DNA of 51,023 bases from Candidatus Omnitrophota bacterium (GTDB taxonomy: Bacteria > Omnitrophota > Gorgyraeia > Pluralincolimonadales > Pluralincolimonadaceae), in contig JAZDOX010000087.1 in assembly GCA_043798215.1 (NCBI GenBank), forward strand, positions 1 to 51,023. Reading direction: 5' to 3'. Shown here piece after piece: positions 3,471-47,887 of this stretch. Positions within the stretch are counted from its first letter, which is position 1. Every line of letters begins with the position of its first letter. Under the pieces are notes generated by a model. The model was not told where the DNA came from and did not search any database. It saw only the letters and a program-made list of their open reading frames with translations. Position numbers and translations under genes: made by a program.

Positions 3471-3647
3471 AGACTGTGTCGTAATGTAGTTGCCCAATTT
3501 ATTGGGCAGATATATTGTGCTCGATATCATGCCTGAGGCAGGCCCGCCTTTTGCACCAGAGGCGCATCAGCCTCAGGCTGAGGCGGGAATCGAGCAGCTA
3601 CAATATGTTGATGCATTTAGCGGAAGAAAGGGATTGCGACACAGTCT
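3471..3647. mobile_element. MITE family A, copy 1 (TIR agactgtgtc...gacacagtct) carrying a GTAG REP doublet and nested palindromic inserts
   Basis: Homologous to 31758-31873 and 47193-47308. Confidence 0.85.
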
Positions 3648-15133: not shown

Positions 15134-15643
15134 ATGTTCGAGACGGCGGCCCCGGACCCGCTTAGCCGCCTGTCTTCTGTAGCTTTAGCGAAGAGGGATG
15201 CCCTAAGGCTTTTAAGGTTCAGGCCCAGAAGCGTCAAAGAGATAAGCCTAAGGTTGAAGCAAAAAAGGCACAGTGATTTAGTAATCGCGGAAATTATCGA
15301 AGAGTTAAAAGGAAAGAACTTCTTGAATGACGATATTTTCGCGAAGCTTTGGATAAATGAAAGACTATCTCTTAAACCTTCAGGGAGAGCCCTGTTAGCT
15401 CAGGAATTAAGAACTAAGGGTATTGACGATGCCGTTATAGAAAAAGCTTTCAGCGGGCTTAAAGGCAGTTTTGACGAATCTGGGATTGCCGTTTCTTTGG
15501 CGCGTAAGAGAATGGAAAGGTTTAGAAATATTGATGAACAAAAAGCCAAGAAAAAGCTGTTTGATTTTTTAAGACGGCGTGGTTTCTCGGATGAAATTGT
15601 TTGGAAAACGCTGAAGGATATTTATGGTGTTGCCGATGCGTAA
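15134..15643 (+). CDS. recX: Regulatory protein RecX
   Basis: ALRLLRFRPRSVKE, FLNDDIFA, QELRTKGI, FLRRRGF. Confidence 0.92.
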   Translation: MFETAAPDPLSRLSSVALAKRDALRLLRFRPRSVKEISLRLKQKRHSDLVIAEIIEELKGKNFLNDDIFAKLWINERLSLKPSGRALLAQELRTKGIDDAVIEKAFSGLKGSFDESGIAVSLARKRMERFRNIDEQKAKKKLFDFLRRRGFSDEIVWKTLKDIYGVADA

Positions 15644-20429: not shown

Positions 20430-20574
20430 CTTGAAATTTAACATCGAGCGCAGAGCCGATTTCCGCCTGAGGCGGACAGGTATGACGCAGTTGATTATTT
20501 TATTTGAATGAGTAATAAAGCAAGGCCCCGCCACAAAGCGTCGGCGGGCAGGCAAGCGAGATTTAAATTTCAAG
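20430..20574. mobile_element. MITE family B, copy 1 (TIR cttgaaatttaa...ttaaatttcaag) with two micro-palindrome inserts
   Basis: Aligns to the reverse complement of 31600-31698 except for inserts at 20462-20480 and 20528-20552. Confidence 0.88.
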
Positions 20575-20626: not shown

Positions 20627-21331
20627 ATGAATGAACTTGTTATCGTTGATTATGGAATGGGAAATTTGCGCAGTGTCTCTAAGGCGTTTGAGAAGGTGGG
20701 CGCGAGGGTGAAGATTTCGGATGACCCCAAAACAGTCTCCAGCGCGGAGAGATTAGTGGTTCCCGGCGTGGGGGCTTTTAAGGACGCGATGAGGCAGCTT
20801 AAGAGACGAGGCCTTACTGAAGCGATTCATGAATTTGTGGATAAGGGCAGGCCTTTTTTAGGGCTATGCCTGGGCCTTCAATTGATCTTTTTCGATAGCG
20901 AAGAAGGCGGAATAAATAAAGGACTTGGTTTTATCGAAGGCAAGGTCTTGAAATTTCCGAAGCGGCCTCTTACTATGGAAGAAGGCGCGCCGCCGTTAAA
21001 GATACCGCATATGGGCTGGAACCAAATAAGGATTGACGGACAGCGGACAGCGCACAGCAGACAGAAAAAAAACCTGAACGCTAAACGCTACATGCTGAAC
21101 GCTGAAAAAATGTGCCCGTTACTGAAAGGCATACCAGACGGTTCTTATATGTATTTTGTGCATTCTTATTACGCTGAACCGGAAGACGACGATTGCGTTG
21201 CGGCCTGGACGGATTACGGTATTGAGTTTCCGTCCGTTGTTTGGTCGAGAAATATTTATGCCACGCAGTTTCATCCCGAGAAAAGTCAGAAACTGGGGCT
21301 CGAAATTTTAAGGAATTTTATGAAAATATGA
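20627..21331 (+). CDS. hisH: IGP synthase glutaminase subunit, with an in-frame heptamer-repeat insert
   Basis: VDYGMGNLRSV, PGVGAF, GLCLGLQ, PHMGWN, YFVHSY, QFHPEKS. Confidence 0.97.
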   Translation: MNELVIVDYGMGNLRSVSKAFEKVGARVKISDDPKTVSSAERLVVPGVGAFKDAMRQLKRRGLTEAIHEFVDKGRPFLGLCLGLQLIFFDSEEGGINKGLGFIEGKVLKFPKRPLTMEEGAPPLKIPHMGWNQIRIDGQRTAHSRQKKNLNAKRYMLNAEKMCPLLKGIPDGSYMYFVHSYYAEPEDDDCVAAWTDYGIEFPSVVWSRNIYATQFHPEKSQKLGLEILRNFMKI

Positions 21332-22120: not shown

Positions 22121-22180
22121 CGTCATTCCCGCAATCTTTTTCCGCCCAAGGCGGACGGGGCATCAAGCCGGGTAATGACA
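22121..22180. repeat. Degenerate CGTC/TGTCA REP with a nested tccgcc-caa-ggcgga micro-palindrome
   Basis: cgtcattcccg...[tccgcccaaggcggacggg]...cgggtaatgaca. Confidence 0.65.
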
Positions 22181-22233
22181 AATTGCCGTAATAACTTATG
22201 AAACCACTTGTAGTTAGAGAGGAGAAAAAATCT

Positions 22234-23064
22234 TTGACGGGTTTAGCGAAGAGAATAATACCTTGTCTTGATGTCCAAGAGGGCCGCGTTGTTAAGGGTG
22301 TTAAATTTTTGCAATTGCGCGATGCCGGCGATCCTGTTGTAAGCGCTTCTTTTTATGAGAAGGAGGGCGCCGACGAGCTTATTTTTTTGGATATAACGGC
22401 CAGTTACGAGAAGAGAGGCATAATGCTGGATGTTGTGCGGCGCGCGGCCGAAAATGTCTTTATGCCTTTGACAGTTGGCGGCGGAATTAGGAATTTAACC
22501 GATATTCGAAATCTTTTAAGCGCGGGCGCGGATAAGATCTCGATAAATACGGCGGCAGTAAACGAACCCTCTCTTATATCAAGAGCCGCCGCTAAATTCG
22601 GGACGCAGTGTATAGTAGTCGCCATTGACGCTAAATTAGTCCAGAGTCCAAAGTCCCCGCCTACGCCAAGGCTTCGGCGGGCAGGCACAGTCCACAAAGG
22701 AAAATCGTCGAATAGAAAATGGCAGGTTTATACACATGGCGGCAGGACGCCTACAGGTAAAGATGTCGTTGAATGGGCAAAAGAAGTTGAAGAGAGAGGC
22801 GCCGGTGAGATCCTGTTGACTTCTATGGATATGGATGGAACCAAGAAAGGCTACGATCTTGAGCTTACCAAAGCGGTCTCTGAATCCGTCAATATACCCG
22901 TTATAGCTTCGGGAGGCGCCGGAAATTTGGAGCATTTGTATGAGGCTTTAACGAGGGGCAAGGCAGACGCTGTTCTCGCGGCCTCCATATTTCATTTCAG
23001 AGAATTTAGCGTGCCGCAGGCAAAAAAATACCTTAAAAAAAAAGGAGTGGCGGTAAGAATATGA
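22234..23064 (+). CDS. hisF: IGP synthase cyclase subunit, with an in-frame repeat insert
   Basis: [41 protein letters not shown]; TTG start 22234 behind aggag. Confidence 0.97.
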
Positions 23065-31599: not shown

Positions 31600-31698
31600 C
31601 TTGAAATTTAAGTCTCGCTTGGCCTTGCTTTATTACTCGCTTAAAGTAAAAACCAGCTGCGTCATAAATCGGCTCTGCGCTCAACATTAAATTTCAAG
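31600..31698. mobile_element. MITE family B, copy 2 (empty form, no inserts)
   Basis: TIR cttgaaatttaa/ttaaatttcaag; reverse-complement homologue of 20430-20574. Confidence 0.88.
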
Positions 31699-33094: not shown

Positions 33095-33574
33095 GGGCGA
33101 CCGCAAGGGTCGCCCCTACGTATAAAATTTTGGTGCAAACAAATCAATAGCGATATGTAGGGGATGGGCTTGCCCCATCCCGAGATAAATACAATCGAAG
33201 CATTGAGAAATAACGGCGTGTCTGGGTAACGGTAACGGGACGTTTTCAAAATTAAAGCTGGATATATCTCAAAATAATCTCGGCATGTTCCACTCGTAGG
33301 GGCGAGGTTGCCTCGCCCGAATGAAAATATAAACGATAAAGTAATTGGGCGCGAAGACCGCGCCCCTACATTTCATATCTGTCTATTGGCGCACATACAA
33401 TAGTCATAATTAAAACGCCGTTGTAGGGGACGACCTCTCGCCAGACTTCGCCGAACTCTGGCGAGAGATCCGCCCCTACAGCGCGATTATGTTTGTCAAA
33501 TATAATTCAACGGTTTAAGATGAAAATAATCCTATGAATTATAAAGTGGCGGTTCAGGCAGGCCCGAACCCTAC
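33095..33574. repeat. Cluster of about 7 divergent GTAG-type REP palindromes in both orientations
   Basis: Units at 33095-33119, 33157-33181, 33296-33318, 33347-33369, 33423-33479 (double) and 33551-33574, all with gtaggg/ccctac ends. Confidence 0.85.
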
Positions 33575-34687: not shown

Positions 34688-34836
34688 TATTCTTCGAGTG
34701 AACTCTCCGTAGGCCTGCCTGCCGGTAGGCAGGGAGTGAGTCGAGAAGTTCTGCTGTTGTCCCTGTCTGCGTGCCACGCACAGGCAGGCATATTCGTAGT
34801 TCTCGACTCGGCCAATGGCCTCGCTCGAACAGTATA
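34688..34836. repeat. TCGAG-type palindromic doublet with two nested CCTG micro-palindromes
   Basis: tattcttcgag...agtcgagaa / ttctcgactc...ctcgaacagta; inserts at 34714-34733 and 34762-34788; related to 46365-46438. Confidence 0.75.
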
Positions 34837-39670: not shown

Positions 39671-39789
39671 TCGGTGGTCGTTACTTTATAAAGCTGATGA
39701 TGGTTTTCAGCCTGAGACTGATCCGCCCTTGGCGGAAATACCGCCATCAACGCAAACCGTTCGTTAGAGAACTTTGTTCTCTAACGGGA
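39643..39789. mobile_element. MITE family C, long form (TIR cccgttagagaa), TTTA TSD, overlapping the smc 3' end
   Basis: TTTA at 39639-39642 and 39790-39793; same TIR as 47097-47127. Confidence 0.85.
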
Positions 39790-47308: not shown

Positions 47309-47440
47309 CCAAGGCGGGTAATGACAATTCCTAATATTGGACAATGACAATGTGAAATTATGCTATTTCTTTAGGTGGTATTAGGAAGGCCTATCCTTTA
47401 GGATTAGGAATTCGGGTTACTTTGTAGTATTAAAAAATAT

Positions 47441-47545
47441 CGGGGCGTGGCTCATCCTCCAAAATAATGGCGGATTTCAGCAGAAATTGTAAATTTCTGC
47501 CTCAAGTTTGGTAGAGCGTCCGCCGAAGGCGGAAGGTCGGCGGTT
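47441..47545 (+). pseudogene. Remodelled 5' copy (positions ~1-55) of tRNA-Pro
   Basis: cggggcgtggctca [51-nt insert] gtttggtagagcg [tccgccgaaggcgga] aggtc ggcgg tt, compared with 47811-47887. Confidence 0.85.
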
Positions 47546-47833
47546 ATGTATTATGCATATGTGCTAAAAAGCAAAAAGAACGGTAAGCATTATATAGGCC
47601 ATACAGAAAATATAGAAAGACGACTTTATGAGCATAATGCCGTTACCGATAAATGCAAATTCACTTACATTAGTGGTCCTTGGGATCTAATGTTTTTTGA
47701 AAATTTTAGCACAAGATCGGATGCGATGAAACACGAGAGATTTCTTAAATCAGGCAAAGGCAGAGAGTATATAAAAAATAAAATAGCTGCGATAAAGAAT
47801 GATATGCAGTCGGGGCGTGGCTCAGTTTGGTAG
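47546..47833 (+). CDS. Small GIY-YIG nuclease (UPF0213-like)
   Basis: YAYVL...HYIGHT.NIERRLYEHN...AMKHERFLKSGKGRE. Confidence 0.9.
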   Translation: MYYAYVLKSKKNGKHYIGHTENIERRLYEHNAVTDKCKFTYISGPWDLMFFENFSTRSDAMKHERFLKSGKGREYIKNKIAAIKNDMQSGRGSVW

Positions 47834-47887
47834 AGCGCTTGGTTCGGGACCAAGAGGTCGTGCGTTCAAGTCGCACCGCCCCGACCA
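47811..47887 (+). tRNA. tRNA-Pro (anticodon CGG)
   Basis: Full cloverleaf: acceptor cggggcg/cgccccg, anticodon arm cttgg-ttCGGga-ccaag, T arm gtgcg-ttcaagt-cgcac, encoded CCA. Confidence 0.97.

Follow-up and report, generated by a model that had tools for sequence, protein, structure and literature searches.

A candidate class of CAGG-tagged, REP-like mobile hairpins in Omnitrophota

How do two copies of one MITE, lying in the same stretch of DNA, come to differ by two short hairpins? The question is raised by positions 20430–20574 (forward strand, 145 nt; copy A) and 31600–31698 (reverse strand, 99 nt; copy B) of the window, the whole stretch of 51,023 nt analysed here, which is contig 56 of a 125-contig, 1.82-Mb Omnitrophota assembly with 44% G+C and a completeness of 89%. 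Short repeats are unusually abundant in this genome, with many 12-mers present 70–130 times, and classical GTAG-tagged REPs are found in it, frequently as inverted doublets. One such REPIN-like doublet lies at 33296–33369 of the window, and such REPs recur as targets of the hairpins described below. The mobile-element genes of the genome include one IS110-family element, one reverse transcriptase and six DDE_Tnp_1 hits.

The tagged inserts and their family

Copy A and the reverse complement of copy B align from end to end as one MITE with a common terminal inverted repeat (CTTGAAATTTAA / TTAAATTTCAAG). The alignment confirms the claim of an earlier, sequence-only reading that the two copies differ mainly by two inserts, the variable middle adding substitutions, one 2-nt indel and one 1-nt indel. 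Both inserts are present in copy A alone and lie on its forward strand. The first, at site 1 (20462–20480), is the 19-nt hairpin TCCGCCTGAGGCGGACAGG, laid out as TCCGCC-TGA-GGCGGA-CAGG between the flanks GATT and TATGACG, with a 1-nt T ambiguity. The second, at site 2 (20527–20552), is CCCGCCACAAAGCGTCGGCGGGCAGG, or CCCGCC-ACAAAGCGTC-GGCGGG-CAGG, between AAGGC and CAAGCG with a 1-nt C ambiguity; it measures 26 nt and not the 25 nt first read, while the size of 19 nt stood. Each consists of a 6-bp GC stem, a loop and an unpaired CAGG tail, and the A/B alignment contains no target duplication at either insert beyond the 1-nt junction ambiguity, as the sequence-only reading had it. Folded as single-stranded DNA, the 19-mer reaches −6.1 kcal/mol (z −3.4) and the 26-mer −7.3 kcal/mol (z −2.3), the CAGG tail being left unpaired in both.

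The host MITE is itself a short derivative. Copies A and B, together with a set of relatives of 215–399 nt, have ends in common with an IS110-family element on another contig (C89:21423-22951), which is complete, has an open frame of 373 codons and ends in CTTGAAATTTAA / TTGAATTTCAAG. The MITEs in which the hairpins sit probably descend from this element, whose own right end carries nested hairpin modules, among them a CCTGCC...GGCAGG unit. A copy 100% identical to MITE B lies on a further contig of this genome (C67:800-898). On metagenome contigs (L108-L121) the core of the short MITE (GCGCAGAGCCGGTTTATGACGCAG ... GAGTAATAAA.TAAGGCCAAGCG) is almost invariant between organisms while the sequence just inside the terminal repeats shows compensatory changes, a combination which hints that the core may have a function, e.g. 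as a small RNA.

For the pattern CCGCC-N3-15-GGCGGRCAGG the window has 3 matches, where 100 shuffles give an expectation of 0.00, and the genome-wide census that the sequence-only reading had proposed returns 32 matches against 0 for the reversed control pattern. The shorter string GGCGGRCAGG has 67 genome sites, 33 of which close a compact YCCGCC hairpin of 19 (17 cases), 24 (5), 26 (8), 27 (2) or 30 nt (1). Once the stem kin CCTGTC...GACAGG-CAGG and CCTGCC...GGCAGG are added, the family comprises about 150 distinct elements, every one of which ends in GRCAGG. The common layout is 19–30 nt long, with a 6-bp GC-rich stem (CCCGCC, TCCGCC, CCTGCC or CCTGTC), a variable loop and an unpaired 3' CAGG, read on the opposite strand as a 5' CCTG tag followed by the hairpin; inverted ends are confined to the CCTG...CAGG forms. 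The elements are singlets, 15 of the 150 having a neighbour within 100 bp, mostly via a shared MITE. They are also mostly extragenic: ORFs of 150 aa or more make up 75% of the genome but contain 29/150 elements, and in-frame placement within a gene is rare. A search of the region against Rfam gave no family match.

The hairpin itself is under constraint as far as comparison of loci can tell, since its outer Y–R pair covaries and one loop occurs with different complementary stems. At 31 loci of other genomes the base before CCGCC depends on the R after GGCGG (Fisher p 1.3e-4): with R as A it is T at 7 loci and C at 4, and with R as G it is C at 19 and G at 1. The loop TACGCCAAGGCTTCG is found with three stems, namely CCCGCC/GGCGGG, CCTGCC/GGCAGG and CCTCT/AGAGG.

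Pattern counts further show the family to be conserved across Omnitrophota. Matches are present in 175 of 401 sampled genomes, typically at 1–8 copies, while the control pattern mostly gives 0–1; the highest counts belong to this genome (32) and to G038 (27), G333 (15), G051 (14), G380 (11) and G219 (10). Loop sequences such as ACAAAGCGTT recur across families.

Within the window, eight further units had been listed as related, and three of them are clear members. These are a 30-nt hairpin at 22656–22685 (forward strand, discussed with hisF below), a 20-nt near-perfect palindrome (CCTGCCTGCCGGTAGGCAGG) at 34714–34733, recognised by window comparison and folding as a symmetric, doubly tagged form, and a 27-nt member (CCTGTCTGCGTGCCACGCACAGGCAGG) at 34762–34788 (forward strand), for which up to 13 empty paralogous sites exist. 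Membership does not extend in the same way to the other five. Comparison within the window shows the unit at 22141–22159 (forward strand) to be a variant hairpin, TCCGCCCAAGGCGGA, with a CGGG tail, situated within a GTCATTCC...AATGAC-type repeat; those at 39722–39737 and 47519–47533 have the family stem without the tag; that at 15169–15198 is doubtful; and that at 3544–3587 is part of a different module. The latter, at 3527–3587 (forward strand, 61 nt, 11 empty sites), is a nested structure of another hairpin class, in which a 30-nt double hairpin sits in the loop of a 31-nt double hairpin.

Other classes of cleanly inserted hairpins are spread through the genome, for example at C110:10299, C125:7636 and C96:24758 as well as at 3527–3587 of the window. 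The 31-nt double hairpin TCATGCCTGAGGCAGACCCGCCTCCGGCGGG is placed in the loop GCCCAATA^AATTGGGC, with up to 25 empty sites, and 30-nt double hairpins sit within the loop of its CCCGCC stem; 24- and 30-nt modules beginning GCTCGCCTCG are further examples. The classes are thus nested one inside another, Russian-doll fashion.

Filled and empty sites

When the genome was compared with itself, repeat copies differed by 201 clean indels of 12 nt or more; 40 of them are length-matched family members, spread over about 20 flank contexts. Filled and empty sites in these pairs differ by a single hairpin with a junction ambiguity of 0–1 nt. One position is especially informative: the REP loop GGTTTC^CGCGCC is empty in many copies, and in others the same phosphodiester is filled by CCCGCCTGAGGCGGGCAGG, CCTGCCTACCGGCAAGGCAGG or CCTGTCTGCCGACAGGCAGG. 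The 26-mer of copy A also occurs in the GCAA loop of a longer-MITE hairpin, again alongside empty copies, and near-identical units are present in other contexts of this genome and at 31 loci of other MAGs. Exact matches to it come from MAGs titled Candidatus Omnitrophota and from some titled Planctomycetia.

Of 13 parsed copies of the A/B MITE, 6 are empty at site 1, 4 have a 19-mer there and 3 a 51/52-mer whose ends are the same; compensatory TCCTCC/GGAGGA arms are seen in one of the three. Site 2 is filled in copy A only (1/13), while copy B is empty at both sites. The state of site 1 across these 13 copies is independent of the middle segment of the MITE, and so several independent events, or gene conversion among copies, are needed. 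On other metagenome contigs all 13 copies of the MITE (11 distinct) are empty at both sites, in a search able to detect inserts of up to 30 nt. A contig from one public run lacks exactly the 19 nt at 20462, a weak observation as the contig may be a paralogous MITE copy, and a search of other metagenomes with a unique 27-nt flank did not find the orthologous locus.

An insertion whose polarity is set by a conserved gene is provided by hisF (22198–23064, forward strand; TIGR00735, 389.6 bits). Its protein has a loop some 23 residues longer than in 7 of 11 relatives, where the loop is short (RKGKSW). The extra stretch (~22636–22705) is an AGTCCA-type short-repeat element with the 30-nt tagged hairpin at 22656–22685 nested inside it, in frame over 10 codons. 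This 30-mer is absent from all 11 relatives compared, one of which (G018) has a related AGTCCAC-repeat host insert without it. As other inserts occur at the same loop in G018, G024, G019 and G020, the loop is, on the evidence of the aligned genes, a recurrent landing site. Upstream in the window, hisH (20627–21331) exceeds its family model by some 25–35 residues and its match is split; the extra DNA (21040–21110) consists of GGACAGC-like units, an A-run and GCTGAACGC-like units, and is also found on contigs 36, 86 and 91. REP-like elements can therefore extend the loops of essential enzymes (hisF, hisH) without breaking them.

Taken together, comparison of copies shows the filled state to be the derived one, reached by insertion and not by deletion: every one of the 13 foreign MITE copies is empty, one of the 13 parsed copies has site 2 filled, and the 30-mer is lacking in the hisF relatives. 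Furthermore, identical 19- to 30-mers in unrelated contexts make deletion alone insufficient, and precise loss may occur in addition to insertion. The suggestion of a family of ultra-short mobile hairpins that insert cleanly is thereby borne out, with about 150 elements, 40 of the 201 clean indels and a derived filled state, and the elements are very probably mobile insertion elements.

Insertion follows a short motif. In 32 independent contexts the flanks read 5'-TC^CR-3' (T at −2 in 19, C at −1 in 22, C at +1 in 29, R at +2 in 28), and these bases belong to the target and not to the element, since empty sites hold them contiguously. The motif is not seen in G038 and G333, where the 5' flank reads ..CG^ and most copies ride in a few MITE families, so that it is either specific to a lineage or the element is differently defined there. 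Within REP loops, the insertions have the same orientation relative to GTAG in 11/11 oriented cases. Relative to GC skew, 18 contexts lie on the G-rich strand, 9 on the other and 2 are mixed.

The hairpins had also been proposed to prefer other hairpins as targets, which holds in part. Hairpin tips (apex ±4 nt) account for 16 of 53 independent sites (30%) against 18% of random genome positions (p about 0.03), a modest excess. Of two stricter measures, which reveal little or no preference, perfect flank stems give 13.6% against 6.7% and an exact MFE hairpin-loop test gives 10/53 sites, not above controls. The conspicuous targets are the loops of GTAG REPs and of MITE hairpins, but most sites lie elsewhere than at tips, and the TC^CR motif describes the targets better.

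Candidate explanations of mobility

The best reading of these observations is a third, CCTG/CAGG-tagged class of REP-like single-strand mobile hairpins. Stated in full, namely that the CAGG family consists of non-autonomous, REP-like hairpins moved as a single strand by a Y1-type enzyme, it is given a probability of roughly 0.4. On this view a HUH/Y1 transposase of the RAYT or IS200/IS605 kind, acting in trans, would cut the hairpin at its tag and its stem foot and join it, as a single strand, to a single-stranded target. The argument for such chemistry comes from the tag and hairpin form, the target on a tetranucleotide scale and the lack of duplication; elements of the IS200/IS605 family make no target duplication and have a 4-nt target. 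Their orientation bias is stronger than the 18:9 found here.

Candidate enzymes are present in the genome. Of four Y1-transposase loci found, two are split by a REP doublet and two have intact ORFs, whose scores against the NCBIfam model "REP-associated tyrosine transposase" are 82.9 and 67.7 bits (cut-off 80). RAYT-like ORFs of 323 aa and 205 aa lie on contigs 14 and 25 respectively. The interrupted RAYT-like genes (C23:3734-3919 and C35:12908-13093; L002, L004) are both entered by a GTAG REP doublet at the same place past the HUH motif, and REPs have accordingly hit their presumed own transposase gene. No family member lies within 500 bp of the four Y1 loci of this genome, and none occurs at the 12 best Y1 loci of relatives. 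A REPtron-like gene bracketed by inverted members was likewise not found, pairs of elements bracketing ordinary genes only. Across 41 genomes the Y1 copy number and the element count have a Spearman coefficient of −0.02, and Y1 hits are lacking in G003 and G006 (4 pattern matches each) and in G219 (10 matches). The comparison with RAYTs and REPs made in the sequence-only reading is consequently apt for form, while linkage to a RAYT was not found.

This want of linkage and correlation is what favours a different enzyme, neither a Y1 transposase nor a GIY-YIG nuclease, as the agent of mobile hairpins: either the IS110-family recombinase of this genome or a protein outside the known transposase families. 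Such an agent is possible, if unlikely. The IS110-family element from which the host MITEs derive has a family member in its own right end, and the search of this genome covered six protein families only. IS110-type elements make no target duplication and are known to target REPs. Insertion sequences targeting REPs are also cited in the accessible portion of Bertels and Rainey, 2011 (PMC3116915). Against the IS110 recombinase in particular, no member lies within 500 bp of the IS110 gene save that of the element's own end region (815 bp), the ends of the hairpins are unlike IS ends, and a double-stranded circle of 19–30 bp would be a physically implausible donor. A bolder and doubtful version holds that a single tagged hairpin of 19–30 nt, the smallest self-contained mobile DNA unit described, may have been moved phylum-wide in Omnitrophota by a non-RAYT enzyme, be it a member of the expanded set of small GIY-YIG nucleases or an unrecognised protein. 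Were this true, tagged palindromic repeats would gain a third superfamily (CCTG/CAGG), transposed by a chemistry of its own.

It is improbable that the hairpins are motifs kept by selection for a function in the host, as a protein-binding site or as a hairpin signal in RNA or DNA, and that they owe their spread chiefly to recombination among repeat copies instead of being selfish transposing elements. Such a reading would agree with the phylum-wide conservation, which includes the loop ACAAAGCGTT, with the 1–8 copies in most genomes, with the compensatory stem changes and extragenic bias, and with the many copies carried within MITE subfamilies. Identical units in unrelated unique contexts, one of them inside hisF, do not fit it, nor do the three different members found at one REP-loop position, the sharp target motif and the lack of an Rfam match; function and mobility are in any case not exclusive.

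The mobiliser named in the sequence-only reading, a small GIY-YIG nuclease that would nick at the hairpin and mobilise it, is not supported and is improbable. The idea arose from a TCCGCC-GAA-GGCGGA unit directly before a GIY-YIG gene. That hairpin does exist (47519–47533, forward strand), 5' of a 95-aa GIY-YIG ORF (47546–47833, forward strand; PF01541, 56.2 bits); on comparison of sequences, however, it bears no CAGG tag and belongs to a partial 5' duplicate of tRNA-Pro. Within 47439–47887 the ORF stands between this 5'-half duplicate, whose D-loop is interrupted and in which TCCGCCGAAGGCGGA takes the place of the anticodon arm, and the intact tRNA-Pro(CGG) (47811–47887, forward strand, found by a tRNA search of the window), which overlaps the 3' end of the ORF. 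The whole has the appearance of a small mobile cassette inserted into a tRNA gene.

In favour of the nuclease, the genome has 13 GIY-YIG hits, 12 of which are small ORFs of several subfamilies, unusually many among the 41 genomes compared, and other GIY-YIG-rich genomes (G020, G038, G032) are likewise rich in hairpins, as is G333 with 15 hairpins and 8 hits. The predicted relation between the two counts exists weakly, with a Spearman coefficient of 0.34 (naive p 0.03) over 41 kin, non-independent genomes, or 0.28 without this genome; the GIY-YIG count, however, tracks genome size more strongly (0.54, 41 genomes). Individual genomes also depart from it, with 8 hits and 0 hairpins in G039, 3 and 8 in G025, and 2 and 10 in G219. 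None of the 12 small genes has a family member within 500 bp, a distance that takes in 6.6% of the genome, and the joining of DNA goes beyond what a nuclease alone does.

The GIY-YIG subfamilies also bear different flanking repeats of their own. Three "KRYYVYI" genes (C52:19568-19792, C50:21432-21653 and C88:1838-2056; L005, L006, L011) have GGATT-stem-loop-AATGAC units on both sides, two of the ORFs ending within such a unit, which is the end motif of an abundant MITE family. GIY-YIG genes may thus be tied to the GGATT/AATGAC repeat family rather than to the CAGG hairpins. Four further ORFs of 73–78 aa (C124:11968-12156, C50:2818-2991, C71:11789-11944 and C82:2227-2385) lie inside the inverted repeat CCCGCACCCAGC...GCTGGGTGCGGG, which is followed by AATTCG, a copy-specific hairpin and CTCATTAAA, a conserved frame with a swappable hairpin.

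Deletion as the sole explanation, with an ancestral long form, a copy B shortened by the exact loss of its palindromes and no mechanism of insertion, is highly improbable: palindromes are prone to deletion in bacteria and the contig lacking exactly 19 nt could as well be a loss, but the same 19-, 26- and 27-mers in unrelated contexts, the counts at site 2, the empty foreign MITE copies and the hisF orthologues without the 30-mer contradict it, and with it the origin of the short copy by deletion that the sequence-only reading had named as its own refutation.

Comparison with known palindromic repeats

Debate over the spread of REP-like palindromes is decades old and has drawn mostly on static copies. 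In this one small genome there are dozens of clean filled and empty sites whose polarity is set by outgroups and a conserved gene; the target motif is sharp, and hairpins grow by nesting inside other hairpins. Donor hairpin, tag and target are exact substrates for a biochemical test of single-hairpin transposition, and the mobile unit need not be a doublet. The family also helps to account for the fragmentation and repeat richness of such Omnitrophota MAGs. A literature search, not an exhaustive one, found no account of CAGG/CCTG-tagged hairpins or of small repeats in Omnitrophota, and the terms "MITE" and "palindrom" occur 0 times in an Omnitrophota genome preprint.

Miniature elements dependent on DDE transposases differ from the CAGG hairpins, which are without target-site duplication and have inverted ends in the CCTG...CAGG forms only. 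Elements of the IS200/IS605 family and their miniature derivatives are closer, with hairpin ends, a tetranucleotide target and no duplication, achieved through Y1 HUH single-strand chemistry. Such elements are some 100 nt long or more and depend on two unlike hairpin ends, whereas a CAGG element is one hairpin in its entirety, the strand bias appears weak and no OrfB_IS605 or TnpB-type gene was found in this genome (89% complete). The nearest precedent for nested elements of 21–27 nt is reportedly that of the small dispersed repeats (SDR) of heterocystous cyanobacteria, which are said to be 21–27 nt long, in some cases hairpin-forming, with an unknown mobiliser and with insertions inside other repeats and conserved sequence. 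Sequences and phylum differ.

In the accessible portion of their paper, Di Nocera et al., 2013 (PMC3733652) divide REPs by tag into two superfamilies, GTAG and CGTC, the latter without a dedicated transposase, and describe some REPs inside small palindromes and some within genes; the string CCTG occurs 0 times in that text. The CGTC REPs, which include the Rickettsia palindromic elements, resemble the CAGG hairpins in that no dedicated transposase is known and some copies lie in frame in genes, as the hisF copy does (PMC3733652, same portion). Tag, stem and phylum differ, however, and filled and empty sites are far more plentiful for the CAGG hairpins.

The closest likeness in form is to the GTAG REPs and REPINs with their RAYT. 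Both are, as far as the accessible portions of the two sources describe them (PMC3116915, PMC3733652), imperfect palindromes of 20–40 nt with an unpaired tetranucleotide at one end, extragenic and multicopy, making no target duplication and thought to move single-stranded. Canonical GTAG REPs and RAYT-like genes even coexist with the CAGG hairpins in this genome. The tag, in contrast, is not GTAG or GTGG: the 3' foot bears CAGG, which the opposite strand reads as CCTG at the 5' foot. The replicative unit of REPs has been argued to be the doublet, or REPIN (Bertels and Rainey, 2011, PMC3116915, accessible portion), whereas the CAGG units are singlets of 19–30 nt and not inverted doublets. Unlike in a REPtron, no RAYT gene is flanked by CAGG hairpins (0/4 here, 0/12 in relatives), and the CAGG hairpins insert into the loops of GTAG REPs themselves. 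What is new relative to REPs is thus the CAGG tag, the single hairpin and the insertion into REPs and MITEs.
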